Assembly: GCA_016719645.1 (NCBI GenBank)
Contig: JADJYS010000001.1
Location: forward strand, 134,558 to 198,557
Source of the DNA: a bacterium
GTDB taxonomy: Bacteria > Krumholzibacteriota > Krumholzibacteriia > LZORAL124-64-63
Length of the DNA: 64,000 nucleotides
Reading direction: 5' to 3'
Below the pieces are notes generated by a model. The model was not told the origin of the DNA and did not search any database. It worked only from the letters and a program-made list of their open reading frames with translations. This document shows, in pieces, positions 5,484 through 52,219 of this stretch. The translations under genes and the position numbers were made by a program. Each line of letters opens with the position of its first letter. Position 1 is the stretch's first letter.

Positions 5484-6035
5484 ATGTCCTTCGTCGAGAA
5501 GACCACCATCATGAACGGCAGCGAGGTCGCCCGCGCGCTGACCCGCATCGCCCACGAGATCATCGAGGCCAACAAGGGGACGGCGGACCTGGTGCTGCTG
5601 GGCGTGCAGCGCCGCGGGGTGCCGCTGGCGGCGCTGATCGGCGAGGCGATCCGCAAGGTGGAGGGGGTCGAGGTCCCCCTCGGCGCCATCGACATCACCT
5701 TCTACCGCGACGACCTCTCCACGATCGGGCCGGCGCCGCGGATCAACGAGACCACCGTCCCGATGGACGTCACCGACAAGAACGTCATCCTGGTCGACGA
5801 CGTGCTGTACACCGGCCGCACGGTGCGCGCCGCCCTCGACGTGATCATGGACTGGGGCCGCCCGCGCGCGATCCGCCTGGCGGTGCTCATCGACCGCGGG
5901 CACCGCGAGCTGCCCATCCGCCCGGACTTCGTCGGCAAGAACGTCCCCACCTCCCACAAGGAGATCATCAAGGTCAAGGTGAAGGAGTACGACGACCGCC
6001 AGGAAGTGGTCGTCGGGGAGGTGCAGGAGGGATGA
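5484..6035 (+). CDS. pyrR: bifunctional pyr operon attenuation regulator / uracil phosphoribosyltransferase PyrR
   Basis: [12 protein letters not shown]...[13 protein letters not shown]...[13 protein letters not shown] (PRTase fold, PyrR family). RBS gggagggg upstream. ATGA overlap with pyrB. Confidence 0.9.
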
Positions 6036-36885: not shown

Positions 36886-36897
36886 CGCGGGCCGCCG

Positions 36898-38292
36898 CTA
36901 CTTCCAGTGCTCGCTCAGGAACTGGTCGACCTCGGGGATGCCGCCCTGGTACACGAGGTACCCGTTGTAGGGCTCCCGCTCGGTGATGTCGCGCGCGATC
37001 GGCGTCAGCATGATGCGGGCGACCTCGGCGGGGTCCTGCGTCTGGCCCAGCGCCCAGCCCAGCTTCATGTAGGCCACCTCGGGCAGCATGTTGGCCGCGG
37101 GCACGACGCCCAGCTCCATGATCTCGCGCCCGGTCTCGTACACGTACATCTGCACGAAGCCCCAGAGCGTCTGCACGGTCATGAACATCGAGACGCCCGC
37201 CTTGTGCGCCCGCTCCAGCGCGGGGTACAGGGGGCGGTTGACGTGGCCCAGGCCCGTGCCCGCGATGATGATCCCCTTGTAGCCGTGGTCGACCAGGCTG
37301 TCGATGACGTCCGGCTTCATGCCCGGGTAGTAGTAGACCAGCGAGACCCGGTCGTCGAAGACGGCCTTGACCGTGACGTCGCGGTCGGCGCGGCGGCGGC
37401 TGTAGTCGTTGCGGAACGGCGTGACGCCGTCCTGGTCGACCTTGCCCAGGGGGACGTCGCTCAGGGTGCGGAAGGTCGAGCGGTACGAGGAGTGCATCTT
37501 GCGCACGCGGGTGCCCTGGTGCAGCAGGCCGTACTGGTCGCTGGTGGGGCCGAACATGCAGACCATCACCTCGGCGAGGTCGCTGGTCGCGGCCGTGCGC
37601 GCGGCGTTCATGAGGTTGATGGCGGCGTCGGAGCTGGGCCGGTCGCTCGAGCGCTGGCTGCCGACCATGACGATCGGCACCGGCGAGCCCTGGACCATGA
37701 AGGAGAGGATGGCCGCGGTGTGGTGCATGGTGTCGGTGCCGTGCCCCACCACGATGCCGTCGACGCCGGCGGCGATCTCGCGCCCGATGGCCTCGGCCAG
37801 GCCGATCCACTGCTCGGGCCCCATGTTCTCGCTGAACACGCCGTAGAGCTTCTCGGTCTCCAGGTTGCAGACGTCCGCCAGCTCGGGCACCGAGCCGTAC
37901 AGCTCGCCGGGCGAGAAGGCGGGGATCACGGCGCCGGTGCGGTAGTCCAGGCGCGAGGCGATCGTGCCGCCGGTGCCCAGCAGCTTCACGCGGGGCTTGC
38001 CCTCGGAGTAGGGGAAGGCCTTCTCCGGGATCTTGTAGTTGGCGACCTTGCGCCCGTGGACCGTGATCTCCTGCATGCCCCCGACGTGCAGGCCGATGTT
38101 GTAGCCGGTCGACATCTTCAGCACGACGTGCTCGGGGTCGGCCATCTCGTTGCGCGGCAGGATCAGGCCGCGGAACTCGCCCCGGTCGGTGCGGATCGTG
38201 ACGTCGCTCCACACCAGCGCGTCGTGCTTCTTCAGCACGGCCAGCGCCGGGTCGCGGTAGCCCTTGTAGTCCTCGTTGCCGTTCCCGCTCAC
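36898..38292 (-). CDS. gatD: archaeal-type Glu-tRNA(Gln) amidotransferase subunit D (asparaginase-like)
   Basis: N-terminal GatD-specific domain (EHVVLKMSTGYNIGLHVGG) plus L-asparaginase fold (LGTGGTIAS, GIVVGHGTDTM). GTG start with GTGA overlap to gatE stop. Confidence 0.85.
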   Translation of the reverse strand: MSGNGNEDYKGYRDPALAVLKKHDALVWSDVTIRTDRGEFRGLILPRNEMADPEHVVLKMSTGYNIGLHVGGMQEITVHGRKVANYKIPEKAFPYSEGKPRVKLLGTGGTIASRLDYRTGAVIPAFSPGELYGSVPELADVCNLETEKLYGVFSENMGPEQWIGLAEAIGREIAAGVDGIVVGHGTDTMHHTAAILSFMVQGSPVPIVMVGSQRSSDRPSSDAAINLMNAARTAATSDLAEVMVCMFGPTSDQYGLLHQGTRVRKMHSSYRSTFRTLSDVPLGKVDQDGVTPFRNDYSRRRADRDVTVKAVFDDRVSLVYYYPGMKPDVIDSLVDHGYKGIIIAGTGLGHVNRPLYPALERAHKAGVSMFMTVQTLWGFVQMYVYETGREIMELGVVPAANMLPEVAYMKLGWALGQTQDPAEVARIMLTPIARDITEREPYNGYLVYQGGIPEVDQFLSEHWK

Positions 38293-40205
38293 GACGTCGC
38301 CTCCTCGAGCCAGGCGGCCGCCTGGCGTCCCGACACCCGGCCGCGCAGGGCGGGCATCACCCGGCCCATGATCGCGCGCCGCCGCGGCCCGTCCGCCTCC
38401 GGCAGGCCGGACGGCGGCGCGGCGGCCGCCTCGGCCCAGGCCGCGTCGAAGGCCGCGCGGGCCTCGCGCGGCGGCAGCGCGGCGGCGGGATCGCCGTCCG
38501 ACCACCAGATCGCTTCGGGCAGGACGCGGCCCGCGCGCAGCTCGTCCAGGGCGCGCTCCCACCAGGCGCCCGCCGCGGGCACGCTCGACGGCCGCGGCAG
38601 GTCGCGGTCCAGCAGCAGCGAGGCGAGCCCGGTCGCGGACAGGGGGCCGTCGCCGAGGCGGGGGTGCAGGTGGGCGTAGAGGTCGTAGGCCGGGTGCCGG
38701 GCCAGCCGGTCGGCCAGGTCCTCGCCCACGCCGTCGCGGCGCAGCCGCTCGCGGCGCTCCCAGGGCGGCGGCGGCAGGTCGGCGGCGAGGCGCGCGAGGC
38801 GGTCCGCGGCCAGCACGACCGGGGGCAGGTCGGTGTCCGGGTACATGCGGCTGGGGCCGGGCAGCACGCGCTCGAAGCCCGTGGTGTCGTCGGGCAGGGC
38901 CTGGCGGGTCTCCTCGGGCACGCCCTCGCAGGCCTCGCGCGCGCGCAGCAGGATCTCGCCCGCCGCGGTGCGGGCGTCGCGCTCGTCGCCCCAGACCACC
39001 ATGATGGGCGTGTCGCGCCCGACGCCGCAGGCGCGCTCGATGCGGCCCCACTCCGCCGACGAGAGCGTGGAGATCTCGCTCGTCGAGCAGATGACGTTCG
39101 GCAGCGTGTCGATGCAGGCGACCACGCGCACGCGGTCCGAGAATTCCTTCAGGAAGCGGGTGTGGGGCTGGGTCGGGGTGGAGACGAGCCCCTCGAAGCC
39201 GGGCAGGGGCACGGCCATGACGCGCGCGCCGCCCGCGACGGCCTCGCGCAGGTAGCTCCCCTCGGCGCCCTGGACGATCGAGGTCACGTCGCGCGAGGCG
39301 TCCGGCAGGGATTCCGCGGTCACGCCGCGCTCGCGCAGGACGTCGCGGATGGCCAGCAGGCTGCGCTGGCGCAGGGCCTCGTTGTGCACCAGCCGCGGGA
39401 TGCGCTTGATGCTCGGGACGCCCTTGATCTCGACGCGGGAGCCGCCGCGGATGCTGACGTTCACGTCCTGCCGCGCCGCGCCGACGCCCGTGCGCACCAG
39501 GCCGCTGGCGCGCGCCAGGCGGCGCAGCTCGTCGCAGACGGCGGCGACGTCCCAGGGGGTGTGCATGTCCGGATCGGTGACGGTCTCGATCAGGGGCATG
39601 CCGAGCCGGTCGGTGCGGTAGACGCGGGAGTGGCCGCGGTCGCTGACCTCGCGGCAGGAATCCTCCTCGATGGACAGCTGGCGGATCCCGATGCGCCGCC
39701 CGCGGTAGGGGACCGCGCCCTGGACGCCGATGATCGCCGTGCGCTGGAAGCCCGTCGGGATGCTGCCGTCGAGGTACTGCTTGCGGGCGATGTGGATCTC
39801 GTCGACCACCTGCAGGCCGAGCATCAGCGAGACCCGCACCGCGTGGTCGAGCGCCTCGGGGTTCATCTCGAAGGGCGGGGCGTCGTCCATCTCGTAGGTG
39901 CAGACCGTCTCGTCGTTCAGCAGGTAGGTGATGTTCTTGCGGGTCTTGAACTCCATCAGCGCGGTGCCGTCGTAGTCCCCCATCTCGCTGAGGGTCGGGC
40001 GCATGTGGCGCAGGATCTCCGCGTGGTGCTCGCCGGTGTAGCGGCCGGCGGGGCAGCGGCAGAAGAGCTTCTTCGAGGTCTGCAGCTGCTGGTGCACCTC
40101 GAGTCCGGACATCAGCCCGAGCGACTGGTATTCGTCCTCGCCCCAGGCTCCCAGGACGGGCAGCGGGGCGCCCTGCAGGGGATCGTAGCGGGAGACGTCG
40201 TTCAT
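38289..40205 (-). CDS. gatE: archaeal-type Glu-tRNA(Gln) amidotransferase subunit E
   Basis: GLEVHQQLQTSKKLFCRCP N-terminus, GatB/GatE catalytic core, C-terminal GatB/YqeY-like tail. About 638 aa as in archaeal GatE. Confidence 0.85.
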   Translation of the reverse strand: MNDVSRYDPLQGAPLPVLGAWGEDEYQSLGLMSGLEVHQQLQTSKKLFCRCPAGRYTGEHHAEILRHMRPTLSEMGDYDGTALMEFKTRKNITYLLNDETVCTYEMDDAPPFEMNPEALDHAVRVSLMLGLQVVDEIHIARKQYLDGSIPTGFQRTAIIGVQGAVPYRGRRIGIRQLSIEEDSCREVSDRGHSRVYRTDRLGMPLIETVTDPDMHTPWDVAAVCDELRRLARASGLVRTGVGAARQDVNVSIRGGSRVEIKGVPSIKRIPRLVHNEALRQRSLLAIRDVLRERGVTAESLPDASRDVTSIVQGAEGSYLREAVAGGARVMAVPLPGFEGLVSTPTQPHTRFLKEFSDRVRVVACIDTLPNVICSTSEISTLSSAEWGRIERACGVGRDTPIMVVWGDERDARTAAGEILLRAREACEGVPEETRQALPDDTTGFERVLPGPSRMYPDTDLPPVVLAADRLARLAADLPPPPWERRERLRRDGVGEDLADRLARHPAYDLYAHLHPRLGDGPLSATGLASLLLDRDLPRPSSVPAAGAWWERALDELRAGRVLPEAIWWSDGDPAAALPPREARAAFDAAWAEAAAAPPSGLPEADGPRRRAIMGRVMPALRGRVSGRQAAAWLEEATS

Positions 40206-40304
40206 GGGCGTCCTGTGCGGCTGGAGTGGAGGGAACGTGCGGCGCGGGACCAATATAGGGGGCGCGCTACGGGGGGCCAACGTTGTTTTCCCGTCGGCAG
40301 GAGG

Positions 40305-40335
40305 TTGTGAAATCTCGTCAACCAGCATCTTGACG
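40305..40335. promoter_or_regulatory. candidate Rex operator/inverted repeat in the gatE-rex divergent region
   Basis: TTGTGAAatctCGTCAAC matches half of the TTGTGAA-N4-TTCACAA Rex box. It overlaps a perfect IR cgtcaa-N8-ttgacg. Confidence 0.3.
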
Positions 40336-40434
40336 GGCATCCGGCGGCGGGAGTAGATTGGTCCTGTCAAAGACCTAACAAGAACGCTCGTGATCCGATC
40401 GGCGCCGCGCCGCGGCCGGCGAAGGGAGATCCCG

Positions 40435-41109
40435 GTGAGGGTCGTCAACACCAAGGGCAAGAAGTTCCGCGTTCCCGACGCCACCATCCTGCGTCTGCCG
40501 CTGTACCTGGACAAGCTCATCCTGCTGCAGCAGGCGGGCGTCAAGGAAGTCTCGTCGCGGCAACTCGCGACCTCCCTGGACATCAAGGCCAGCCAGCTGC
40601 GGCACGATTTCCACTACTTCGGGGGCTTCAGCAAGCCGGGCCGTCCCTACCAGGTCGACAAGCTGGTGCCGGCCCTCGAGGAGATCATCGGGGTCGACGT
40701 GCCGGTGCCCATGATCATCGTGGGAGCCGGCCACCTCGGCCAGGGCCTGGCCAACTACCGCAACTTCGAGCGCCTGGGCTTCCCGCTGCGCGGGATCTTC
40801 GACGTGGACCCGAAGCTCGTCGGCCTGGAGATCCGCGGCGTGCCGATCCGGCCGCTGTCCGAGATGCCCGCCTACGTGCAGGAGAACGGCATCCGGGTCG
40901 GCGTGCTGACCGTGCCGGTGGGGGTGGCCCAGGACGTCGCCAACCAGATGGTCGCCGCCGGCGTGGTCGGCATCTGGAACTTCACGCCGACCGACATCCG
41001 CACCCCGCCGCAGGTCATCGTGCGCAACGAGCGGCTGGCGGTGGGCCTGATGTGCCTGAGCTTCAAGGCCAAGCGGGTCGGCCAGGCCGAAGAGCTGAAG
41101 CAGGACTGA
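40435..41109 (+). CDS. rex: redox-sensing transcriptional repressor Rex
   Basis: RLPLYL...wHTH N-terminus and Rossmann NADH-sensing domain (IVGAGHLG). GTG start after GAAGGGAG RBS. Confidence 0.85.
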   Translation: MRVVNTKGKKFRVPDATILRLPLYLDKLILLQQAGVKEVSSRQLATSLDIKASQLRHDFHYFGGFSKPGRPYQVDKLVPALEEIIGVDVPVPMIIVGAGHLGQGLANYRNFERLGFPLRGIFDVDPKLVGLEIRGVPIRPLSEMPAYVQENGIRVGVLTVPVGVAQDVANQMVAAGVVGIWNFTPTDIRTPPQVIVRNERLAVGLMCLSFKAKRVGQAEELKQD

Positions 41110-41117
41110 CCCGCAGG

Positions 41118-42110
41118 TCACCAGCGGATCAGGTTGGCGCCCCAGGTGAAGCCCGAGCCGAACGCCACCAGCACCAGCAGGTCGCCGCGTTCGAGCCGGC
41201 CCTCCCGCGTCGCCTCGCTCAGCGCGATGGGGATCGACGCCGCCGTCGTGTTGCCGTAGCGGTGGATGTTGCTGAAGACCTGCTCCGCGGACAGGTCGAA
41301 GCGCTTGGTCACCGCCTCGGTGATGCGCAGGTTGGCCTGGTGGGGGATGACCAGCTTGACGTCCTGCTTCGCGACCCCGCCCGCCTCGAGCACCTCCTGG
41401 ATCGCCTCGCAGAAGCGCCGCACCGCGTGCGTGTAGACGGCCCGGCCGTTCATGTGCGGGAAGTGGCGGCCCTCGGCGATCTGCGCGGCCGTGATGCGGC
41501 CCGGCTGGCTGCCCGACGGCAGCTCGCACCACAGCTCGCGGGCGAACTCGCCCTGGCTGTGCAGGACGCTGGCCAGCACGTCGCCCGGCCCCTCGCCCGC
41601 CTGCAGCACGACGGCGCCGGCCCCGTCGCCGAACAGCACGGCGATGTCGCGGCCGCGGTCGGAGATGTCCAGCGAGGTGGAGTGGATCTCCGTGCCGACG
41701 ACCAGCACGGTGCGCGCGAGCCCGGCCTTGATGTGGGCCGCGGCCGTGGCCAGGCCGTAGACGAAGCCGGTGCACTGGTTGCGGATGTCCAGGGCGCCGA
41801 CCGTCCGTGCGCCCAGCGCGTGCTGCAGCAGGACGCCGTTGCCCGGGAAGAAGCAGTCGGGGTTGAGGGTCGCGCAGATGATCAGGTCGAGATCCCCGGC
41901 CGCGAGGCCCGCGTCCTGCAGCGCCATGCGCGCGGCGCCGGCGGCGAGGTCGTCGAGCGTCGTGCCGGGGGTGATCCAGCGGCGCTCGCGGATCCCGGTG
42001 CGCTCGACGATCCACTCGTCGCTGGTGTCCATCCACTGCGCCAGGTCGTGGTTGGTCACGACGCGCTCGGGCACGCAGTGCCCCGTCCCGATCACCTTCG
42101 CACAGGTCAC
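41118..42110 (-). CDS. fabH: 3-oxoacyl-ACP synthase III
   Basis: Cys-His-Asn triad context (NQCTGFVYGL, HQAN, GNTTAASIP). GTG start. Confidence 0.9.
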   Translation of the reverse strand: MTCAKVIGTGHCVPERVVTNHDLAQWMDTSDEWIVERTGIRERRWITPGTTLDDLAAGAARMALQDAGLAAGDLDLIICATLNPDCFFPGNGVLLQHALGARTVGALDIRNQCTGFVYGLATAAAHIKAGLARTVLVVGTEIHSTSLDISDRGRDIAVLFGDGAGAVVLQAGEGPGDVLASVLHSQGEFARELWCELPSGSQPGRITAAQIAEGRHFPHMNGRAVYTHAVRRFCEAIQEVLEAGGVAKQDVKLVIPHQANLRITEAVTKRFDLSAEQVFSNIHRYGNTTAASIPIALSEATREGRLERGDLLVLVAFGSGFTWGANLIRW

Positions 42111-42125
42111 GTCCTGCCTCCCGGT

Positions 42126-42940
42126 TCAGCGGCTCGTGATCTTGAGGTCGCGGCCCAGGGCCGCCGCGTGCGCGGCGGCCCAGGCCCCGGCTTCGGCCTC
42201 GGAACGGAACCAGGCCACGCGGACCCGCGTCAGCGAAGCGCCGCCGGCCGTCCTGACGGTTTCGGTCTCGATGCGGTGGCCGGCCTTGCGCAGCCGGGTC
42301 ACCAGCTCTTCGGCGTTGGCCGGCTGGCCGAAGGCGCCCAGCTGGATCGCCCACGCGCCCGAGGCGCCCGGGGGCACGATCGCCGTGCCGGCCGGCGTCG
42401 GCGCGGTCTCGACCGCGGCCGCCCCGTCCGGTCGCCGACGGGCTCGTCGCCGCCCGCCAGGCCGTCGGCACCGGCCGCCGCGCCGCGAACGGCCGCCGCC
42501 CGGCCGCCGGGGCTCTCGGGCACCACCTCGGGGGCTTCCTGCGCCAGGTCCACGTCACCGCTGACGGGCCGCTGGGGGTCGTAGGGGAGCCCGGGGGAGT
42601 CGGAGGTCACGACCGACGTCTGCTCGCCCACCGGCGGCGGCAGTTCGAAGCCGCCGCGCGGCCAGAAGATGAACACCAGGATCGCCACCAGGGCGACCCC
42701 CACGGCGGCCAGGATCCCGCGGCCGCTGCGGCCGCCGCGCCTGCGCACGCCGACCACCGTCGCCGGCGCGCGCCAGGCGTCGTCGCCGTCCGGCTCGTCT
42801 CCGGCCGGGGCGTTCCCGGGCGGTGCGTCGGGTGCGGGCGCCCAGGCGCTGCGCGGGTCATCGTCCCGATCCTCGGCCCGGTTGAGGAACTCCAGGTCGC
42901 CGTCGTCCTCGTCGTCGTCGCGGCGCCGGTCGTCGAACAT
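42126..42940 (-). CDS. SPOR-domain (septal peptidoglycan-binding) membrane protein; N-terminal and SPOR parts lie in different frames
   Basis: N-terminal acidic cytoplasmic tail plus TM helix (ILAAVGVALVAILVFIFW) in frame of ORF 42299..42940. C-terminal SPOR domain (AWAIQLGAFGQPANAEELVTRL...RVRVAWF) in frame of ORF 42126..42377. The P/A/G-rich linker hides the frameshift position. Confidence 0.6.
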
Positions 42941-43090
42941 CGCGCGTCCTCCGGTCTAGTGGGATGCAGCCCGGGCGCGAGTATAGGCGGGCCCGGGCCG
43001 GTCGCACAAGCGCGGAACCGCCGCCCACCCCGGCCGACGCGCGCTTGCGCCGCCGCCGCGTGCCGCCTATGATCGCCAAGGGAGGACCGC

Positions 43091-43804
43091 ATGAGCCGTC
43101 AGCAGAGCCGACGTCGCCGGGCCGAGGCCTTCATCTTCGACCTCGACGGCACGCTCGTCGACTCGGGACGCGATCTCGCCGTCTCGGCCAACTTCGTGCG
43201 CGCCCGCTTCGGGCTGCCGGAACTCCCGGAACCGGTCGTCGTCTCCTTCGTGGGCGACGGCGTGGGCAAGCTCGTCGAGCGCGCGCTGGCCGACCTGGGG
43301 GGACCGTCGGCCGCCGAGCGCGTCGCCGAGGGCCTGGGCGTCTTCATGGACCACCACGACCGCCACTGCCTCGACCACAGCCGCCTGTACCCGGGCGTGC
43401 TGGAGACGCTGCGCAGGTTCGCCGACTTCCCGCTGATGGTGGCCACGAACAAGTCCCGCCGCTTCGCCGTGAAGGTGCTGGCGGGACTGCACGTCGACGG
43501 GGCCTTCCGCCGGGTGGTGTGCGGCGACGACGTCGCACGCCGCAAGCCCGACCCCGAGCCGCTGGCGCTCTGCCTGCAGGGGCTGGGCGTCGACCCCCGC
43601 GACGTGGCCATGGTCGGGGACGGGACCAACGACGTCCTGGCGGCCCGCGCCCTGGGCTGCACCGCCGTCGGCTGCGCCTTCGGCCTCACCGCGCGCGACC
43701 GCCTGCTCGCCGCCGGCCCCGACCTCGTGCTGGAGTCCTTCGCCGAGCTCGCCGACCACTTCGTCTCCCGTCCCGCCCCCGCGCCCCGGAAGGCCGGCCC
43801 ATGA
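43091..43804 (+). CDS. HAD-family hydrolase (phosphoglycolate-phosphatase-like)
   Basis: FIFDLDGTLVDS motif I, VATNKS motif II, K...GDGTNDV motifs III/IV. Confidence 0.75.
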   Translation: MSRQQSRRRRAEAFIFDLDGTLVDSGRDLAVSANFVRARFGLPELPEPVVVSFVGDGVGKLVERALADLGGPSAAERVAEGLGVFMDHHDRHCLDHSRLYPGVLETLRRFADFPLMVATNKSRRFAVKVLAGLHVDGAFRRVVCGDDVARRKPDPEPLALCLQGLGVDPRDVAMVGDGTNDVLAARALGCTAVGCAFGLTARDRLLAAGPDLVLESFAELADHFVSRPAPAPRKAGP

Positions 43805-45577
43805 ACCGTCCGCCCGCGCTCTCGCCCTGGCCGCTCCACGACCTGCTCGCGCGCGCCGTCGCCGAGCTGGACGCCCGCGGCGCGATCTTCGACCTCCCGG
43901 CCGGCAAGTGGCACCGGCCCGTCGACGGCGTCGACCTCGCCGACACGGTCGGCGGCCACGCCGTCGGCACGCCGCTGGGCCCGGCCGCCGGTCCGCACAC
44001 GCAGCTGGCGCAGAACCTGGCCCTGAGCTGGCTGGCCGGGGCGCGCACCCTCGAACTCAAGACCGTCCAGGTCCTCGACGAGCTGGAGATCCCGCGCCCC
44101 TGCATCGACATGGCCGCCGAGGGCTACAACGTCGAATGGAGCCAGGAGCTGCGCCTGGAGGAGTTCCCTGCGCGAGTACGCCAAGGCCGCGCTGCTGATC
44201 GCGGTCCTGCGCGCCTGGGAGCCGGTGCGCGCGGTGGTCGGGGAGCCCGGCGGCCACGTCTTCGAGCTGTCGTGCGGCTACGACCTGGCCGGCGTGCGCA
44301 GCGCGACGATGGCCGCGTTCCTGGACCGCCTCGGCGACGCGGGCGCGGAGGTGGACGCGCAGCGCCGCGGGGTGCCGCGCGCGCTGGCCGCCCTGCGCGA
44401 CGTCGAGGTGCCGGCGCGCCTCTGCACCGGCGCCACCCTGAGCACCTTCCACGGCTGCCCGCCGGGGGAGATCGAGGCCATCGTCCGCCACCTGATGACC
44501 CGCCACGGCCTGGACGTCACGGTGAAGCTGAACCCCACGCTGCTGGGCGCCGACGCGGTGGCGGCGATCCTGCACGACCGGCTCGGCTACCGCGACGCGG
44601 CCCTGGTGCCGCAGGCCTTCGCCGAGGACCTGGTCATGGACCGCGCCCTGGAACTCGTCGGCGGCCTGGCGGATTTCGCGCGCGCGCAGGGCCGCCGCTT
44701 CGGCATCAAGCTCACCAACACCCTGGTGGTCGCCAACGCGCGCGGCCGCCTGCCGGGCGAGCGCGCCTACCTCTCGGGGGCGCCGCTGCACGTGCTGGCC
44801 GCCACCCTGCTGGCCGAACTCGACGCCCGCCTGCCCGGCCGCCTGGCGCTGGCCGGCCGGCCCGGGGGCGAGGTGCCGGTCTCGTTCTCGGCGGGGATCG
44901 AGCGCGGCAACGCGGCCGAGGCCGTGGCGCTCGGGCTGGCGCCGGTGACCGTCTGCAGCGACCTGCTGAAGCCCGGCGGCTACGGCCGCCTGTCCGGGAT
45001 GCTGCGCCGGCTGGCCGACGAGATGCGCGCCGCCGGCTGCGCCGACCTGGCGTCCTGGCGGGCGCGGGCCGCCGCCGCGGCCCGCGACGGCGGCTTCCCC
45101 TCGGCCGCGGCCGCCTACGCCGCGCGCCTGGCCGCCCCCGACGGCGCGGCGCCCTACGCCGCGGTCGCGGTGCGCGCGCCGCTGAAGAGCACCGGCCGCA
45201 AGCTGGACCTGTTCGACTGCACGAGCTGCCACCTCTGCGTGACGGTCTGCCCGAACGACGCGATGATCCGCCTGGCCCGTCCCGACGGGTGCGAGGACCG
45301 CCTGGCCAAGCGCTGGCAGTACCTGTGCCTGGCCGACCTGTGCAACGACTGCGGCAACTGCGCGACCTTCTGCCCCGACGACGGGGCGCCCCACCGGGCG
45401 AAGCCCCGCCTGCACCTGGCGGGCGGGGGGGCCGCGCCGGCCGAATCCGATTATCGTGTCGCGCGCGCCGGCGGGGCCTGGACCGCGGCCGGCGCGCGCG
45501 AACCCGCGCTGGTCGCCGCCCTGCTGCGCGACCTGCCGCTGCCGGCCGAGGACCCGGAACCCGAGGATGCGTCATGA
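43801..45577 (+). CDS. DHOD/DPD-family TIM-barrel flavoprotein with C-terminal 2x[4Fe-4S] ferredoxin domain (PreA-like), apparent 1-nt frameshift near 44175-44190
   Basis: N-terminal 120 aa (GTPLGPAAG...LELKTVQ...IPRP) in frame of 43801. Remainder (FELSCGY, VKLNPT, IKLTNT, CTSCHLCVTVCP, CNDCGNCATFCP) in ORF 44225..45577. Removing one base in gaggagttccctgcg gives continuous EESLREYAKAALL. ATGA overlaps with both neighbours. Confidence 0.7.
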
Positions 45578-47547
45578 CCGCACGTCCGCCCCTGTTCACG
45601 CCGTTCGCCCGCGACGAGGAGACCATCCGGATCGCGCCTGCGCTCGCCCGCGACGGCGGCCTGCTCGCCTGGGCCCGCGACTTCCAGCTGGGCACGGCCG
45701 GCTACCGCGACCTGCTCGACCCCGCCGACCTGCACAGCACCGAGGTCCCGTTCAACAGCCTGAACGTGTCGGTGATGCTGGCCGCCCGCGCCCAGCTGGC
45801 GCTCGAGGAGGGGCTGGCCCACCTCCACGTGGGCGGCGAGGTGCGGCCGCACACCCAGGAGTTCATCGACCTGGCGGCCCGCCTCTACGCCGCCTGCGGG
45901 ATCTGCGTCCACCTGCGTCCCGAGGGGGTGCGCACCACGCCGATCTGGCTGTCGTCCTTCGGGGTGAACTACGAGGAGCTGGACGGGGGCGAGAACTTCA
46001 CCGCCTCGCACAGCCAGAGCTACAAGGGCGGCTGGAAGCCGATGGACGAATCGGGCATGCAGCTGCTGGAGATGGCGGGCCGCATCGCCGACCGCGTGCG
46101 CCTGCTGGCCGAGCGGGCGGCCGAGGAGGGGCTCGAGATCCCGCTCGCGGCCGCGGACGACCCCCTGATCGTGCGCGACTTCGATCCCGTCGCCGCGTAC
46201 GCGGACGCGCTGCGGGCCATCGTGCCCGCGGACATGCTGGACGGGATCGCCGCGGCCGCGGCCCGGGGCTTCCGCACCGCGATCTGCACCGAGGGCGGCA
46301 GCATGGGCGCCGCCGCGCGCCGCGTCTTCGCCGAGCTGGGCGTGGGCGTCGACGGGGACGGGCCCGTCTTCTTCACCCACGAGGCGGAGGCCAGCGACTA
46401 CCACGGCATCGGGATCCTGGACGGCGTGAACCACGGCGTCGACCCCGGCAAGTGGCAGGTCTACAAGCACGTCGGCGCGCAGGCGCTGCTGCGGGAACGG
46501 CGCGCCGACCTGGTGTTCATCTGGGACCCCGACGGCGACCGCTTCAACATGGTGACCGCGGCGCCCGCCGCCCTGGCCGACCGCGCCCGCGCGGCCGGGC
46601 TCGAGGTCGACCCGCTCGACGACGCGCGCGTGCTGGTCTTCTTCAAGCCGAACCAGATCTACTTCATGCTCGCCGCGGCGCGCCTCGAGGCGCTGCACGC
46701 CGCCGGGACCCTCGGCGACGACGACTGGATCGTGGCCACGAGCTGGCCGACCAGCCGCAGCATCGGCGAGCTGGCCGAGGCCTTCAACCGGCGCCACGGC
46801 ACGCGGCTGAGCACCTTCCGCGTGCCGGTCGGCTTCAAGCACTTCGGGAGCCTGGTCGCCGACCTGGAGGACCAGGTGCTCGAGTCCGACCCCGACGATC
46901 CCGGCCTGACCACCCGCGCCGTGGACGCGACCGGGACCGAGACGGTGTTCGGCCCCCGCCCCCGGCTGCTGATCATGGCCGAGGAGAGCGGCGGCGCCGC
47001 GCTGGGCCCCGGCGACTGGATGCTGTCGCGCGACGAGGAGCGCGCGACCCTGGCGATCAAGGAGAAGGACGCCATGCAGGTCGGGCTGGTCGCCCTGGGC
47101 CTCGGGGCGCGCCTGTTCGCCGCGGGGGGCAGCTTCGCCGCCTTCTACCTGGACCGCCTCGACGCCTACGGCATCGTGCACCGGTTCTACGAGCGGCGCG
47201 ACGTGACCCTGTTCGACGAGTCGCTGCGCGGCGCGGCCCGCGAGGAGGCCCGCGCCGCGGGCAACCGGCGCAAGGCGGCCGCGGTGGCCTGCTTCGCGGC
47301 GCTGGAGGGGCTGCCGCCGGCCGAGGTGGCCGCCGCCCTGCGCCGGCGCCTGCCGGCGGGCTGCGAGCTGCCGCCGGTCGTGCGCTGCTTCCGGGCCGGC
47401 GACGGCACGCTGATCGAGTTCGAGGGCTGCTGGTTCGAACTGCGGGCCAGCGGCACCGACGCCGTGCTGCGCTACTACTGCGAGGGCGGCGACGCGGCGC
47501 GCGTCGGCGAGCTGAACTCGGCCCTGATCGGCCTGGACCTGGACTGA
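45574..47547 (+). CDS. alpha-D-phosphohexomutase-superfamily protein (PGM/PMM-like)
   Basis: Active-site Ser loop TASHSQSYKGGWK, metal loop DPDGDR, sugar-binding EESGG. 657 aa. Confidence 0.75.
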   Translation: MTARPPLFTPFARDEETIRIAPALARDGGLLAWARDFQLGTAGYRDLLDPADLHSTEVPFNSLNVSVMLAARAQLALEEGLAHLHVGGEVRPHTQEFIDLAARLYAACGICVHLRPEGVRTTPIWLSSFGVNYEELDGGENFTASHSQSYKGGWKPMDESGMQLLEMAGRIADRVRLLAERAAEEGLEIPLAAADDPLIVRDFDPVAAYADALRAIVPADMLDGIAAAAARGFRTAICTEGGSMGAAARRVFAELGVGVDGDGPVFFTHEAEASDYHGIGILDGVNHGVDPGKWQVYKHVGAQALLRERRADLVFIWDPDGDRFNMVTAAPAALADRARAAGLEVDPLDDARVLVFFKPNQIYFMLAAARLEALHAAGTLGDDDWIVATSWPTSRSIGELAEAFNRRHGTRLSTFRVPVGFKHFGSLVADLEDQVLESDPDDPGLTTRAVDATGTETVFGPRPRLLIMAEESGGAALGPGDWMLSRDEERATLAIKEKDAMQVGLVALGLGARLFAAGGSFAAFYLDRLDAYGIVHRFYERRDVTLFDESLRGAAREEARAAGNRRKAAAVACFAALEGLPPAEVAAALRRRLPAGCELPPVVRCFRAGDGTLIEFEGCWFELRASGTDAVLRYYCEGGDAARVGELNSALIGLDLD

Positions 47548-47558
47548 GGGAGGTACCC

Positions 47559-47828
47559 GTGGGAGGCAAGGGCTACGTCACGCTGACGGTCTACAGCGCC
47601 ACCTGGTGCCCGGACTGCCGCGTCGCCAAGCGCTTCCTGGACGAGCACGGCGTGGTGTACGACACGGTGGAGATCGACCGCGACGAGGACGCCGCCCGGC
47701 TGCTGGAGGAGCGGACCGGCAAGCGCGGGATCCCGTACTTCGTGCTGGACGGGGAGCGCTGGGTGCGCGCCTACGTCCCGCGCCAGGGCTTCGACCGCGA
47801 GGGCATGGCCGAGCTGCTCGGGCTCTGA
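47559..47828 (+). CDS. glutaredoxin-like protein (CPDC active site)
   Basis: 89 aa, TVYSATWCPDCRVAKRFL...GIPYFVL thioredoxin-fold motif. GTG start 8 nt after GAGGGAGG. Confidence 0.7.
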   Translation: MGGKGYVTLTVYSATWCPDCRVAKRFLDEHGVVYDTVEIDRDEDAARLLEERTGKRGIPYFVLDGERWVRAYVPRQGFDREGMAELLGL

Positions 47829-47851
47829 GCGCCGCGGCGCCGGACGCGGCC

Positions 47852-47968
47852 TCAGGCGCGCTTGCTGTGGTCGACCGCCTTGAGGATCTTCAGGTTCAGC
47901 ACGACGAACCGCAGCAGCTGGAACAGCTTGTTGTTCATCCAGTACTTGTCGCGCGGCGTGATCTCCAC
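47852..47968 (-). CDS. small ORF (38 aa) co-oriented downstream of SQR gene
   Basis: GTG start 8 nt after GGAGG that overlaps the SQR stop. VEITPRDKYWMNNKLFQLLRFVVLNLKILKAVDHSKRA, an amphipathic K/L-rich peptide. Confidence 0.35.
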   Translation of the reverse strand: MEITPRDKYWMNNKLFQLLRFVVLNLKILKAVDHSKRA

Positions 47969-47979
47969 GGGGCCGCCTC

Positions 47980-49416
47980 CTACTCGGGTATGATCTTCCA
48001 GCCGATGCGTCCCTGCAGCTTGTGCATGAACGTGGTATGGATCATGCGCTTCATCCAGGCGCCGGCCAGCCCCATCTCCATGTGCGTGACGAACTGGTCG
48101 CGCCCCGACTCGTTGGGGAAGCGCCGGTGGTCGGGGACCACCGGGTAGACCATGATCACCGCCGCCGACCCGTCCCGCAGCGAGTCCCCCATCGAGGCGA
48201 TGCAGGCCGCCGACATCTCGGTCATGCGTTCGCTGTGCGTCATGCGCCCGCGCGTCACCAGATCGACCACGTTCAGGGCCACGACGCGGCCGATGATGCC
48301 CGACACCATGCCGGTGCGGGGAGGCGCGGGACTCACCGGGCGTCCCGACGGCGTCTGGCGCGGGCGCGAGATCGGCCCGGGCGGCGCGAACGCGATGCCC
48401 GCGGCGAAGATCGAGGGGTAGTGCGGGTTCTGGTAGACGGCGGGCCAGGCGTCCGGGTCCCGCCGCAGCTCCTCGTAGGAGAGCCCGTAGCGGCCGTCCA
48501 CCGCCACCAGCCGCGCCGGCGTGACGACGCGGTCGGAGACGTCGCCGCCGTCGCGGCCGAGGTACTTCATGTCGACCCCGGTGAAGCGGGGGATGAGCAT
48601 GGCGAAATCGAACGGGGTCTCGCCCTCGCGGCCGGCGAGATCCTCCCAGAAGATGCGGCCGCCGTCGACCGCGTGGACCGACCGGGCCGTCTCGGGCGCG
48701 ATGCCGTAGTCGCGGAACGCCGCATCGATGAACTCGGCGCTGGTGGTGCGCACGCCGCGGTGCCTGGCCACCAGGCCGTCGATGCCGAAATCGCCCAGCT
48801 CGGGCTCGTTGGTGAGGTAGACCAGGTCGGCGCGGTCGCGCACCCCCTGCCGGACGAGGTCCTTGTGGACGTTGGTGATGTACTCGAGCGCCGCGCCCTG
48901 GCAGGTGGCGCCGCCGTGGCCGGTGCCGATCACCAGCCGCTGGCGTTCGCCGCGCCGCATGCGCCCGATCGACTCCAGGTAGCGGTCGCGAGCCTGCACG
49001 GCGTGCGGCGGCGTGCAGATCGACCAGGTCGCCCCCGCCGCGGGCCCCAGACCGGGGGTCGCGGCGAAGTCGAGCTTGGGCCCCGTCGCCAGGATCAGGT
49101 GGTCGTAGTCCAGGCGGAAGGGCTCGTCGCGGCCGTCTTCGGTCCGGCCGCAGACGAACCGCTCGTCGGGGTGCACCTCGTCCACGCGCCCCTGGACGAA
49201 GCCCACGCCGAAGCGGCGGTAGACCGGCGCCAGCGGGAACTGGGTCCGCTCCGGCGCCATGTGCCCGATGCCGACCCAAACCAGCGATGGGATGTAGACG
49301 AAGTTGGCGGAGCGGTTGACGACCGTGACCTCGTGGTCGCGGCCGAGCCGGTCCCCCAGGTAGAGCGCGGCGGTATGACCCGCGAAACCCGCGCCGACGA
49401 CGACGATCCTGGCCAT
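47980..49416 (-). CDS. sqr: sulfide:quinone oxidoreductase-like FAD-dependent pyridine-nucleotide-disulfide oxidoreductase
   Basis: MARIVVVGAGFAGHTAA FAD motif, second Rossmann (LVIGTGHGGATC), conserved Cys residues, C-terminal amphipathic membrane-anchoring helices. Confidence 0.8.
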   Translation of the reverse strand: MARIVVVGAGFAGHTAALYLGDRLGRDHEVTVVNRSANFVYIPSLVWVGIGHMAPERTQFPLAPVYRRFGVGFVQGRVDEVHPDERFVCGRTEDGRDEPFRLDYDHLILATGPKLDFAATPGLGPAAGATWSICTPPHAVQARDRYLESIGRMRRGERQRLVIGTGHGGATCQGAALEYITNVHKDLVRQGVRDRADLVYLTNEPELGDFGIDGLVARHRGVRTTSAEFIDAAFRDYGIAPETARSVHAVDGGRIFWEDLAGREGETPFDFAMLIPRFTGVDMKYLGRDGGDVSDRVVTPARLVAVDGRYGLSYEELRRDPDAWPAVYQNPHYPSIFAAGIAFAPPGPISRPRQTPSGRPVSPAPPRTGMVSGIIGRVVALNVVDLVTRGRMTHSERMTEMSAACIASMGDSLRDGSAAVIMVYPVVPDHRRFPNESGRDQFVTHMEMGLAGAWMKRMIHTTFMHKLQGRIGWKIIPE

Positions 49417-49591
49417 GGTCCCCCCCCGGAGTCGGACGCCCGGGCGGAGCCTAGCACGTCGCGCAGGCACCGGCTGCCGCTATTCCGCGGCGCTCCGGGC
49501 TTGGCAGCCCCGCGGGCCCCGTGGTAGCATGCCGGGGCCGGGCTTCCGCCCGCCCGGCCGAGCGATGTCACCGCCGGCAAGAGGAGGATCC

Positions 49592-50662
49592 ATGCGCGGC
49601 ACGAAGAACGTCCTGGTGGTGGGGACCGGGACCATCGGCGAGCCCCTGATCGGGCTGCTGAGCCATTTCAAGGACCAGTTGGGCGTCGACGAGGTGCTCT
49701 TCCACAAGAACACGCCGCTGGTCACCGACCGCAGCAAGGTCAAGGACCTCATCCGGCGCGGCGCGCGCATCGTCTCGGACAAGGATCACGTCGCGGGTTT
49801 CAAGGACATCGGCATCCAGGTCGACACCACGACCGAGGACGCGCTGCAGGCCGCGCGGGTCGTCATCGACTGCACGCCCCTGGGCAACGACATGAAGGAG
49901 AAGTGGTACCGGTCCTACGAGGGTTCGACCGACCTCTTCATCGCCCAGGGCAGCGAGTTCGGCTTCGGCAAGCAGTACGCGCGCGGGATCAACGACGAGG
50001 TGCTCGACCACGCGACCGACAAGTACCTGCAGGTGGTCAGCTGCAACACCCACAACCTGTCGCTGATCATCAAGATGCTCGGGCTCGGCGACGAGGGCCC
50101 CGACAACCTGGTGCAGGGGCGCTTCGTGTGCATCCGCCGCGCCAACGACATCAGCCAGGACGGCAAGTTCGTGCCGAGTCCCGAGGTCGGCTCGCACGGC
50201 GACGCCGTCTTCGGCACCCACCACGCCCGCGACGCCTGGCACCTGTTCAACACCCTGGGCTACGACCTGAAGCTGTTCTCCTCGGCCCTGAAGCTCAACA
50301 CCAACCTGATGCACACCCTGCAGTTCCACCTGACGGTGCGCAAGCCGGTGACCCACGCCGAGCTGATGCAGCGCTGCGAGGCCAACGACCGCGTGGCGAT
50401 GACCCACAAGAAGACGGCCAACTCGATCTTCTCGTTCGGGCGCGACCACGGCTTCTACGGCCGCATCCTCAACCAGACCGTGATCCCCTACAACGGGATC
50501 CACGTCTCGCAGGACGGCCGCGAGATCACCGGCTTCTGCTTCACCCCCCAGGACGGCAACAGCCTGCTGAGCTCGGTCGCCGCCACCGTCTGGGCGCTCT
50601 ACCCGGACACCTACGACAAGATCATCCAGTGCCTGCGGCCCTACTTCTTCGACGAGGTGTAG
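49592..50662 (+). CDS. type II (archaeal-type) glyceraldehyde-3-phosphate dehydrogenase homologue
   Basis: VLVVGTGTIGEPL N-terminal Rossmann. VVIDCTPLG and YLQVVSCNTHNL align with the archaeal GAPDH IDCTPEG / VVSCNTTGL catalytic-Cys motif. 356 aa. GAGGAGG RBS. Confidence 0.65.
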   Translation: MRGTKNVLVVGTGTIGEPLIGLLSHFKDQLGVDEVLFHKNTPLVTDRSKVKDLIRRGARIVSDKDHVAGFKDIGIQVDTTTEDALQAARVVIDCTPLGNDMKEKWYRSYEGSTDLFIAQGSEFGFGKQYARGINDEVLDHATDKYLQVVSCNTHNLSLIIKMLGLGDEGPDNLVQGRFVCIRRANDISQDGKFVPSPEVGSHGDAVFGTHHARDAWHLFNTLGYDLKLFSSALKLNTNLMHTLQFHLTVRKPVTHAELMQRCEANDRVAMTHKKTANSIFSFGRDHGFYGRILNQTVIPYNGIHVSQDGREITGFCFTPQDGNSLLSSVAATVWALYPDTYDKIIQCLRPYFFDEV

Positions 50663-50684
50663 CCGGCCGCCCGGCCCGCAGCCA

Positions 50685-50710
50685 CGACGCGCGGAGGCGC
50701 CCGGTCGCGA
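50685..50710. terminator. bidirectional intrinsic terminator between convergent type II GAPDH gene and TPR gene
   Basis: ggcgcccggtc-gcga-gaccgggcgcc, a perfect 11-bp stem, followed by ccgtttcc. Confidence 0.5.
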
Positions 50711-50743
50711 GACCGGGCGCCCCGTTTCCGGGCCGCGGACCCG

Positions 50744-52219
50744 CTAGTCGGCGGGGGTCGGCGCGAGCTGCGCGATCAGGTCGCGGTAGGTCTGCTGCGC
50801 CGGCAGCTTGGCGTCGGCGCGGGCCAGCAGCGGCTGCACCTTCGCCAGGGCCTGGCCGGCGAGTTCGGCCTGGCCGAGTTCGAGGGCCGACCGCGCCAGC
50901 AGCAGCAGGGGGCGGATGCGCGCGGGGTTGGTCTCGAGGATCCGCTTCGCGTTCTCGAGCGCCGGGCCGGGCCGGCCGGCGGCGAGGTAGCTCTCGCCCT
51001 GGCGCCAGAGGAACCACCAGCGCTCGTGCGCGGGTCGCGACAGGCTGGAGTCGAGCATCAGCTGCCACTCGTCGATCGCCTTCTCGTGGTCGCCGTCGCG
51101 GGTCGCCAGCATGGCCCGGAACTGGTGCTCGAGGTTGTCGAGCTGATCGCGGTAGTTCTTGAAGGCGAAGGCGTCGCTGCGGCGCGCCTCGGCCAGGAAG
51201 CCGGCGATCGCGGCGTTCGCCTCTTCGCGGCGGTCCTGCATCGCCAGCTGGATCGCCCGGTAGAAGTCGCACAGGAAGGCGTCCGGGTACTTCCGCTGGT
51301 AGGACTCCATGGCGCGCAGGGCCTCGTCGTAGAGCTCGTGGGTGTAGTACATGCGGATGAGCGTCTCGTCGAGCTCGCGCTCCTGCGGCAGGCCCGCCAG
51401 CGCGGCGCGGATGCTCTCGAGGATCTTCTCGCCCTTGGCGATCATGCCCTGCTCGAGGTACAGCTCGCCCAGGTTGATCTGCGAGTAGTGGAAGTCGGGC
51501 TGGGCGTCCAGGGCGGCCGCGAACTCGCGCTCGGCGTCCGCGTAGTCGCCCTTCCAGCTCAGCACCTCGCCCAGCGAGTCGTGGGGGTTGGCCAGCCCGG
51601 GCGCCAGGAAGGCGTACTTGCGCAGGTGGGTGACGGCCTGCTCGTAGTCGCCGCGTCCCGCGGCGAGGTAGCCGAGCATGTTGTAGGCGGGAGCGTGGTT
51701 GGGCTCGATGGCCAGGATCTGCTCGTAGATGCGCTGGCAGTCGTCCCACTTGCCGGTCTGATAGAGGACGCTGGCCTTGGCCGACAGGGCCATCAGGTCC
51801 GTCGGCTGCTCGGCGAGCACGTAGTCCAGCAGCGAGTCGCGGACCTGGTCGCCCGGCTTGCGGTAGGCGAGCAGCAGCAGCTGCAGCTTCGCGCGCTCGA
51901 GCGCGTTGGGCAGGCGGGCGGCGAGGCTGTCGGCGAGGGCGGCCTCCCGGTCGCTGTCGGCCTGGTCGCCGAAGCGCAGCGAGAGCTGCGAGAGCAGGGC
52001 GTGGGCCGCCGCGAACTCGCCGTCCAGGGCCACCGCGCGCCGCAGCGAGGAGTCGGCCTGGGAGAACTGGAACGCGTTCAACTGGGAGTAGCCGCGCTCG
52101 AACAGCTTGTAGGCCTCCCCCGAGCGCGTGGTGAACTCGCGCTTCGGCCCCCCCAGGAACAGCAGGGCCAGGGCGACCAGCGCCAGGGCGGCCAATCCCA
52201 TCAGGACGGATCTCTTCAT
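50744..52219 (-). CDS. TPR-repeat protein with N-terminal signal/anchor
   Basis: MKRSVLMGLAALALVALALLFLGG hydrophobic N-terminus, then more than 8 TPR-like repeats. ATGA overlap with the upstream PP2C-protein stop. Confidence 0.7.
   Translation of the reverse strand: MKRSVLMGLAALALVALALLFLGGPKREFTTRSGEAYKLFERGYSQLNAFQFSQADSSLRRAVALDGEFAAAHALLSQLSLRFGDQADSDREAALADSLAARLPNALERAKLQLLLLAYRKPGDQVRDSLLDYVLAEQPTDLMALSAKASVLYQTGKWDDCQRIYEQILAIEPNHAPAYNMLGYLAAGRGDYEQAVTHLRKYAFLAPGLANPHDSLGEVLSWKGDYADAEREFAAALDAQPDFHYSQINLGELYLEQGMIAKGEKILESIRAALAGLPQERELDETLIRMYYTHELYDEALRAMESYQRKYPDAFLCDFYRAIQLAMQDRREEANAAIAGFLAEARRSDAFAFKNYRDQLDNLEHQFRAMLATRDGDHEKAIDEWQLMLDSSLSRPAHERWWFLWRQGESYLAAGRPGPALENAKRILETNPARIRPLLLLARSALELGQAELAGQALAKVQPLLARADAKLPAQQTYRDLIAQLAPTPAD

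Follow-up and report, generated by a model that had tools for sequence, protein, structure and literature searches.

A glyceraldehyde-3-phosphate dehydrogenase homologue from Krumholzibacteriota in a sister clade of the canonical type II enzymes

The analyzed window is a stretch of 64,000 nucleotides from a bacterium of the Krumholzibacteriota (GTDB lineage Bacteria; Krumholzibacteriota; Krumholzibacteriia; LZORAL124-64-63). It was taken from the forward strand of contig JADJYS010000001.1 (positions 134,558 to 198,557; NCBI GenBank assembly GCA_016719645.1) and has a G+C content of about 72%. The gene studied here encodes a dehydrogenase related to the type II form of glyceraldehyde-3-phosphate dehydrogenase (GAPDH), with the motif SCNTH (residues 150 to 154) in its active site. 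The open reading frame (ORF) is intact, has no internal stop codons and encodes 356 amino acids, with the start and the length described in an initial annotation made from the sequence alone. Hundreds of homologues with a length of 356 to 358 amino acids share the same start residue, with the N-terminal consensus MxxKNVLVVGTGTIGEPL. The annotated start is considered correct, since the homologues begin at the equivalent position. All motifs cited in the initial annotation were found, namely GTGTIG (residues 11-16), IDCTP (92-96, followed by Leu-Gly at 97-98) and YLQVVSCNTH (145-154). The G+C content at third codon positions (GC3) is 0.986 for this gene, which is similar to the neighboring genes.

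For the protein, type II GAPDH was the sole significant family in NCBIfam, with scores of 82.7 bits for NF003251 (E 2.4e-23) and 61.8 bits for TIGR01546 (E 6e-17). Both scores are far from reaching the curated cut-offs (185 and 232.9 bits, respectively), which places the protein outside the curated type II family. The type I model TIGR01534 gave 14.1 bits compared to a cut-off of 367.2, and the active-site motif of the protein is SCNTHN and not the type I motif SCTTNC. In Pfam, no match was found at E ≤ 1, including Gp_dh_N and Gp_dh_C. The initial annotation had suggested a hidden Markov model (HMM) search to compare TIGR01546 with the families of aspartate-semialdehyde dehydrogenase (ASADH) and ArgC. 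In this search both type II models were matched, while the models of ASADH, ArgC and other Rossmann dehydrogenases were not (E ≤ 1 in Pfam and NCBIfam). An identity as ASADH or ArgC was rejected, as neither was present among the 60 best PDB profile matches listed or among the top fold matches.

Comparison with known structures gave the same relationship. The search of the PDB with the single sequence identified four archaeal GAPDH structures with E values from 2e-10 (2yyy) to 7e-6. Using a profile of 75 family members, archaeal GAPDH chains were matched over the full length with 117 to 139 bits (E 1e-33 to 2e-39); erythrose-4-phosphate dehydrogenase and type I GAPDH reached 32 bits or less. 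An AlphaFold2 model of the protein, built on the family alignment, had a predicted local distance difference test score (pLDDT) of 97.4 and a predicted template modeling score (pTM) of 0.94. When this model was compared to the PDB with Foldseek, 2yyy, 1b7g, 1cf2 and 2czc ranked first (template modeling scores for query, TMq, of 0.78-0.80 and for target, TMt, of 0.82-0.85; 19-22% identity; E about 1e-21). The six best matches were all archaeal GAPDH chains, so the predicted model has the type II fold. Type I GAPDH and erythrose-4-phosphate dehydrogenase followed with a TMq of 0.60-0.67 and an identity of 12-17%. On the basis of these HMM, profile and fold comparisons, the homology to archaeal GAPDH is far above chance, and the archaeal type II GAPDHs are the nearest characterized relatives of the protein. 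The initial description as a type II (archaeal-type) GAPDH homologue is thereby upheld as far as homology is concerned.

The active site of type II GAPDH (GapDH_II) was described in a 2025 review using 1CF2 (M. fervidus numbering) and consists of Ser139, Cys140, Asn141 and Thr142 with His219 as the base (PMC12041015). The inorganic-phosphate site is formed by Ser139, Asn141, Arg167, His193 and His194 and the substrate-phosphate site by Arg167 and Arg168, and a Lys in the nucleotide domain accompanies the use of NADP. In type I GAPDH the catalytic His is another one (His176), and the residues of the phosphate sites differ as well (PMC12041015). The residues were mapped onto the protein by HMMER alignments and a MAFFT alignment, and the conservation was counted over 75 diverse family members. 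All of the described GapDH_II residues are kept in the protein, and they are kept in 60-97% of the 75 members. Cys151 was aligned with Cys140 of 1CF2, and the His base and both phosphate sites were likewise aligned with their counterparts (Table 1), so that the catalytic Cys expected from the initial annotation is present.

Cys151 was found in 69 of the 75 members and the family-specific His154 in 71. Arg182, Arg183 and Asp186 are conserved in 70, 73 and 72 members, respectively. His210 was identified in 67 members, while position 211 is a His in 45 and a Gln in 25 of them. The base His241 is located in the sequence NLMH, which was aligned with TLMH of 1CF2, 2YYY and 1B7G. Lys39 takes the position at which NAD-specific enzymes have an acidic residue or Asn. 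From the conserved type II active-site residues, phosphorylating GAPDH chemistry with a capacity for NADP(H) is predicted.

One small sub-clade deviates from this pattern. In the representatives P0172, P0176, P0177 and P0265, the catalytic Cys, the His-His pair and the His base are lost. For P0172, IPDVMAQ was found in place of VVSCNTH, GTAAA in place of GTHHA and an Asp in place of His241. The source of P0176 is a metagenome-assembled genome of the Myxococcota. Judged by the missing residues, these proteins are probably pseudo-enzymes or re-purposed proteins.

Table 1. Positions of the GAPDH-like gene, its predicted functional residues and signals, and selected neighboring genes in the window.
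Feature	Position	Strand	Remarks
Coding sequence, GAPDH type II-like dehydrogenase, SCNTH family (356 amino acids + stop)	49592-50662	+	Translation, NF003251, AlphaFold2
Strong ribosome-binding site AAGAGGAGGA	49579-49588	+	3 nt upstream of ATG; read from sequence
Sigma-70-like promoter candidate (TTGGCA, 18-nt spacer, TAGCAT, upstream TG)	49501-49530	+	Consensus match
Terminator candidate (hairpin rich in G+C with 11-bp stem and GCGA loop)	50696-50721	+	In the 81-bp spacer 50663-50743 between convergent genes
Rossmann dinucleotide-binding loop GTGTIG (residues 11-16)	49622-49639	+	Gly11, Gly13 and Gly16 in 73-74 of 75 members
Lys39 after strand beta-2 (equivalent to the NADP-specifying Lys33 of M. 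fervidus GAPDH)	49706-49708	+	Lys in 66, Arg in 4 of 75 members
SCNTH: Ser150, catalytic Cys151, Asn152, Thr153, His154	50039-50053	+	Aligned with Ser139-Thr142 of 1CF2
RRAND: Arg182/Arg183 (equivalent to Arg167/Arg168, substrate- and inorganic-phosphate sites), Asp186	50135-50149	+	MAFFT mapping
GTHHARD: His210/His211 (equivalent to His193/His194, inorganic-phosphate site)	50213-50233	+	MAFFT mapping
His241 (equivalent to His219 of 1CF2, base activating the catalytic Cys)	50312-50314	+	Kept in 72 of 75 members
gatD	36898-38286	-	NCBIfam equivalog, 499 bits (cut-off 310)
gatE	38289-40205	-	NCBIfam equivalog, 470 bits (cut-off 456)
YgfK-like Fe-S protein gene	44027-45577	+	
Phosphohexomutase-like protein gene (615 amino acids)	45700-47547	+	
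Gene of SQR-like FAD oxidoreductase (SQR, sulfide:quinone oxidoreductase)	47980-49419	-	NF049943, 51.5 bits (cut-off 525); Pyr_redox_2

The position of the protein relative to the canonical type II enzymes was determined from a wider set of sequences. An exhaustive search of 1.84 billion representatives resulted in 713 clusters (50% identity) at E ≤ 1e-3, of which 132 were found at E ≤ 1e-30. The identity of the archaeal structures to every one of the best 150 representatives and listed homologues is about 30% or lower. Among themselves the archaeal enzymes are 47-60% identical, compared to 14-31% identity to the family. As positive controls, two type II GAPDHs, one from a Pontibacter plasmid and one from a Pseudorhizobium plasmid, named as such by the Prokaryotic Genome Annotation Pipeline (PGAP), were used. 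They reached 452-454 bits with NF003251 and 328-341 bits with TIGR01546, and they are 37-44% identical to the archaeal enzymes and 22% to the protein studied here.

In a neighbor-joining tree, which is a rough method and was calculated with sparse archaeal sampling and E. coli GapA as the root, the canonical type II enzymes (three archaeal and two bacterial) were monophyletic in 96 of 100 bootstraps. The SCNTH family, represented by 76 sequences, was monophyletic in 91 of 100 bootstraps and was placed as sister to the canonical type II clade, not within it. The signatures of the family are SCNTH (SCNTT in archaea), FSFGRDHGFYGR and TPQDGNSLLSS. According to model scores, identities and tree, the protein is homologous to canonical type II GAPDH but is neither a member of that family nor an orthologue, and it belongs to a separate sister clade. 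The label "archaeal-type" given initially is supported for homology, active site and predicted fold, but the protein lies outside the curated family and in a sister clade whose identified members are bacterial.

For the distribution of the family, one genome per GTDB species was scanned using a narrower alignment with a conserved block, which the diverse family alignment did not provide. At least 600 stretches were obtained, and 599 of them passed confirmation. Bacteria account for every one of the best 80 loci, at identities of 56-95%. Among their labels are Krumholzibacteriia, Acidobacteriota, Binatia, Neomarinimicrobiota, Planctomycetota, Myxococcota or "delta proteobacterium", Bipolaricaulota, Eisenbacteria and Entotheonella, and Geothrix alkalitolerans SG263 is a cultured carrier in the Acidobacteriota. 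The protein identity between phyla is 56-62%, while the G+C content of the hosts ranges between 28% and 72%. The family as a whole comprises thousands of 90%-identity clusters. The closest homologues (85-98% identical) are named Candidatus Krumholzibacteria, and some Krumholzibacteria-like records are apparently labeled as Fibrobacter or Gemmatimonadales. All family members with a taxon name are bacterial; for ten distant representatives the cluster look-up yielded almost no taxon names.

The annotation of the family is sparse and differs between databases. The NCBI names seen for the family were "hypothetical protein" in all but one case, and the JGI names were "glyceraldehyde-3-phosphate dehydrogenase (NAD(P))" or "type II". 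Neither a Pfam model nor a curated NCBIfam cut-off captures the SCNTH family members. In a literature search on GAPDH or glycolysis of Krumholzibacteria, bacterial type II or class II GAPDH and novel GAPDH, no paper on the family and no characterized member were found. A study from 2019 stated that there was no functional evidence for type II GAPDH in bacteria (PMC6543838).

The GAPDH-like gene appears to be transcribed alone, as a stand-alone housekeeping unit, judging by its flanking signals and neighbors. The promoter candidate (Table 1) is the sole consensus match in the region 49300-50900, where 0.0 matches are expected from shuffled sequences. From position 49487 onward, and thus including the candidate, the window is collinear with L006, its nearest relative (about 90% nucleotide identity). 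Downstream, the convergent neighbor is a gene for a tetratricopeptide repeat (TPR) protein. The intergenic region between the two genes folds with -54.5 kcal/mol (z = -3.4 compared to shuffled sequences) and contains the terminator candidate, which was missed by a consensus terminator scan because it has no T-run. Promoter and terminator functions are assigned as candidates in both cases.

The downstream gene order (TPR protein, GAF-SpoIIE phosphatase, SmpB, amidase) is kept in the Krumholzibacteria. On the upstream side, the GAPDH-like gene of the relatives is immediately preceded by a GT2-TPR gene, a 5'-nucleotidase gene or both. In the window the 5'-nucleotidase gene ends at position 36885, and a block of 12.7 kb (36886-49590) lies between it and the GAPDH-like gene. 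This block includes gatD, gatE, rex, fabH and genes for a HAD hydrolase, a YgfK-like Fe-S protein and a phosphohexomutase-like protein, as well as a small thioredoxin-fold ORF and an SQR-like gene. In the relatives L001 and L007-L010 the block is absent and the 5'-nucleotidase gene abuts the GAPDH-like gene. In L006, the sequence corresponding to position 47824 is joined directly to 49487, and the segment 47825-49486 with the SQR-like gene is missing. The block and the SQR-like gene look like nested, lineage-specific insertions or rearrangements. No mobile-element genes were found in the block, for which no systematic search was made.

The initial annotation had described the GAPDH-like gene as divergent from an SQR gene and its product as another archaeal-type enzyme, encoded less than 10 kb away from gatDE. 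A divergent gene is indeed present, but its identity as SQR did not hold, as the score for the type III SQR model is far below the cut-off (Table 1). The NF049943 and Pfam matches extend no further than residue 283 of 479, and the C-terminal stretch of about 200 residues has no family match. The product is only a distant relative of SQR and is best named an SQR-like FAD oxidoreductase. The genes gatD and gatE were confirmed about 9.4 kb upstream. Their proximity and the adjacency of the SQR-like gene are local accidents, because relatives lack the block and L006 lacks the SQR-like gene. The implied link to gatDE is thus coincidental, and a functional link to the SQR-like gene was rejected.

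Some genes of the block are unusual in themselves. The gatDE genes encode an archaeal-type Glu-tRNA(Gln) amidotransferase in an otherwise Krumholzibacteria-like bacterial genome. The phosphohexomutase-like protein matches domains I, II and IV of phosphoglucomutase/phosphomannomutase weakly (28.7, 20.9 and 25.2 bits) and is very divergent, with TASHSQ replacing the usual TASHNP. In the YgfK-like protein, 4Fe-4S ferredoxin motifs are combined with a part that resembles YgfK, a putative subunit of selenate reductase (245 bits over model positions 118-406 of 1012), in a truncated architecture.

In other phyla the neighbors of the GAPDH-like gene are different ones. By-eye reading of the gene clusters identified fabD-fabG-fabF in Polarisedimenticolia and tldD, a 167-aa ORF (DUF192) and an HdrD-like gene in Binatia. 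Using Pfam, a GCS2 gene followed by tilS-hpt-ftsH was found in Neomarinimicrobiota and tsaD in one locus labeled Gammaproteobacteria. Clustering of all ORFs of 85 loci of the clade revealed no conserved functional partner, only lineage-specific synteny. Housekeeping neighbors that vary between lineages point to an enzyme that needs no dedicated partner, and the kept synteny in Krumholzibacteria together with the host-like GC3 argues for a long-resident core gene.

A different arrangement was found in a distant, Bacteroidota-type sub-clade (334-344 aa, 28-31% identical to the protein). In five of six contigs its GAPDH-like gene overlaps the end of a Bac_transf gene (PF02397), which encodes a small phosphoglycosyl transferase. 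The GAPDH-like gene is located at 6001-70xx in these loci (L088, L089, L090, L092 and L093) and the Bac_transf gene ends at 6004-6017. The pair recurs in two different wider contexts, and an epimerase/dehydratase gene is often located 1.5-2.6 kb upstream. This arrangement is a hint that the Bacteroidota-type sub-clade may act in glycoconjugate synthesis. An extension of the coupling to the clade of the protein studied here was rejected, since neither the window nor any of the 85 loci of that clade contains the Bac_transf partner.

Based on the active site and the genomic setting, the protein is probably a functional phosphorylating NAD(P)-dependent GAPDH from a sister family of type II, acting as a stand-alone enzyme of central metabolism; we hold this assignment with moderate confidence. 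Substrate, cofactor preference and physiological direction are predicted from homology. By analogy to archaeal type II GAPDH, His241 would activate Cys151 for the attack on the aldehyde of glyceraldehyde 3-phosphate, and the hydride would be transferred to NAD(P)+, with Lys39 being suited to the 2'-phosphate of NADP. The thioacyl enzyme would be phosphorolysed to 1,3-bisphosphoglycerate in a reversible reaction. In this mechanism, the C3 phosphate would be held by Arg182 and Arg183 and the inorganic phosphate by Ser150, Asn152, Arg182, His210 and His211. The enzyme would function in glycolysis or gluconeogenesis, either as the sole GAPDH in place of type I or as an additional isoenzyme for gluconeogenesis with a preference for NADP(H), comparable to GapB of Bacillus or to the archaeal enzyme.

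Several observations weigh against this assignment. The protein is only 19-31% identical to characterized enzymes, and all 75 sampled members are below the NF003251 cut-off (best E 4.9e-38, about 131 bits after conversion, compared to 185). His154, Arg291, Pro319 and Asn323 are family-specific and near-invariant, as is Gln320 (67 of 75 members). A tblastn search with E. coli sequences of type I gap, pgk and tpiA gave no match in the window or in the flanks within 10 kb of the 85 loci. Since the gene of the distant sub-clade is translationally coupled to a phosphoglycosyl-transferase gene, the function may not be uniform across the wider family. The PGAP-annotated type II GAPDH of Pseudoclostridium thermosuccinogenes (CDQ83_07070) was assayed and found to be inactive (PMC6543838); it is the sole assayed bacterial type II GAPDH in the literature searched. 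As the main alternative, the protein could be a GAPDH-like paralogue, and not the GAPDH of the cell, with the same fold and thioacyl-enzyme chemistry but a different substrate. This would be an acyl-phosphate or a phosphorylated aldehyde other than that of GAPDH, for example erythrose 4-phosphate or a phosphorylated semialdehyde from a biosynthetic pathway. The separate clade well outside the curated model, the family-specific residues, the lack of glycolytic neighbors in the loci and the suggested glycoconjugate role of the sub-clade all fit such a shift, for which erythrose-4-phosphate dehydrogenase is an example on the GAPDH fold. We regard a shifted substrate as unlikely, though deserving serious attention, because both type II phosphate-binding sites are retained residue for residue, which favors GAPDH over a dehydrogenase of other specificity, both of which the initial annotation had named as possible. 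In addition, the clade has no conserved pathway partner, Bac_transf included, and its conservation across phyla is as strong as for a central enzyme.

The inactive P. thermosuccinogenes enzyme and the sub-clade without Cys, His-His and His base could also point to a non-catalytic or moonlighting GAPDH-like pseudo-enzyme. This is very improbable for the protein studied here, in which Cys151, the base His241, Arg182/Arg183 and the glycines of the Rossmann loop are all retained, as they are in 69-73 of the 75 members. The true archaeal-type genes gatD and gatE nearby would suit a recent import from archaea, with an "archaeal island" bringing in gatDE along with a canonical type II GAPDH of archaea that has diverged since. 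Synteny, codon composition and phylogeny all contradict this scenario, which can hardly be maintained: the relatives without the gatDE block still carry the gene next to the 5'-nucleotidase gene, the downstream gene order is kept across Krumholzibacteria, the GC3 is host-like, the best 80 loci are all bacterial, and the tree places the family beside canonical type II as its sister, not nested in it (91/100 and 96/100 bootstraps).

In textbooks and curated models, type II GAPDH is treated as archaeal. The kind of enzyme described here is already known. What appears to be new is a large, strongly conserved and under-annotated sister family with a complete predicted active site, whose identified members are all bacterial. 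More speculatively, the SCNTH family could be a third, bacterial class of phosphorylating GAPDH that displaced type I as the sole GAPDH in Krumholzibacteriota and perhaps in other phyla, a reading that we consider rather doubtful at present; in a variant of it, the family may act on a new phosphorylated substrate. If the third-class reading were true, the split between canonical type II and SCNTH enzymes would be ancient and type II would not be an archaeal invention. The annotations of the NCBI pipeline would then show a false gap in glycolysis and gluconeogenesis for hundreds of species.

If the protein is active, it would close an annotation hole in the central carbon metabolism of Krumholzibacteriota and possibly of further carriers, such as Acidobacteriota, Binatia, Neomarinimicrobiota and Planctomycetota. 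The evolution of GAPDH would also become clearer, and the cultured carrier Geothrix alkalitolerans could be used for testing. Should it only accompany a type I enzyme as a second isoenzyme, a known family would have been extended in a routine way.

Compared to known systems, the family is most similar to archaeal type II GAPDH (EC 1.2.1.59; 1CF2, 1B7G, 2YYY, 2CZC). Both share the two-domain fold (TM 0.78-0.85), Ser-Cys-Asn-Thr, the His219-type base, Arg-Arg, His-His and the Lys after beta-2. The length is similar as well (334-343 aa compared to 356 aa), whereas the archaeal SCNTT is replaced by SCNTH and the two further signature blocks are specific to the family. Type I GAPDH (GapA/GapB) and erythrose-4-phosphate dehydrogenase belong to the same superfamily and have the same chemistry and a Ser-Cys-x-Thr core. 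For a gluconeogenic isoenzyme that depends on NADP, a precedent exists in B. subtilis with GapA and GapB (PMC6543838). ASADH, ArgC and LysY are also members of the GAPDH superfamily and share the Cys-based reductive dephosphorylation, but show no profile match to the protein at E ≤ 1 in NCBIfam or Pfam.

Canonical type II GAPDH was found in bacteria as well, on plasmids next to glgP in Pontibacter, Croceicoccus and Pseudorhizobium and in P. thermosuccinogenes; bacterial host and homology are shared with the SCNTH family. In Pontibacter actiniarum (L086, 5001-6038) and Pseudorhizobium flavum (L087, 4860-5894), the gene is located on mobilizable plasmids, and glgP, encoding alpha-glucan phosphorylase, lies immediately downstream or close to it. 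The occurrence in two unrelated bacteria suggests a mobile glycogen-utilization pair of type II GAPDH and glgP. The plasmid-encoded GAPDHs of Pontibacter and Pseudorhizobium cluster with the archaeal enzymes, while the SCNTH family does not. The canonical bacterial enzymes are patchy in distribution and plasmid-borne, whereas the SCNTH family is chromosomal, syntenic and widespread.

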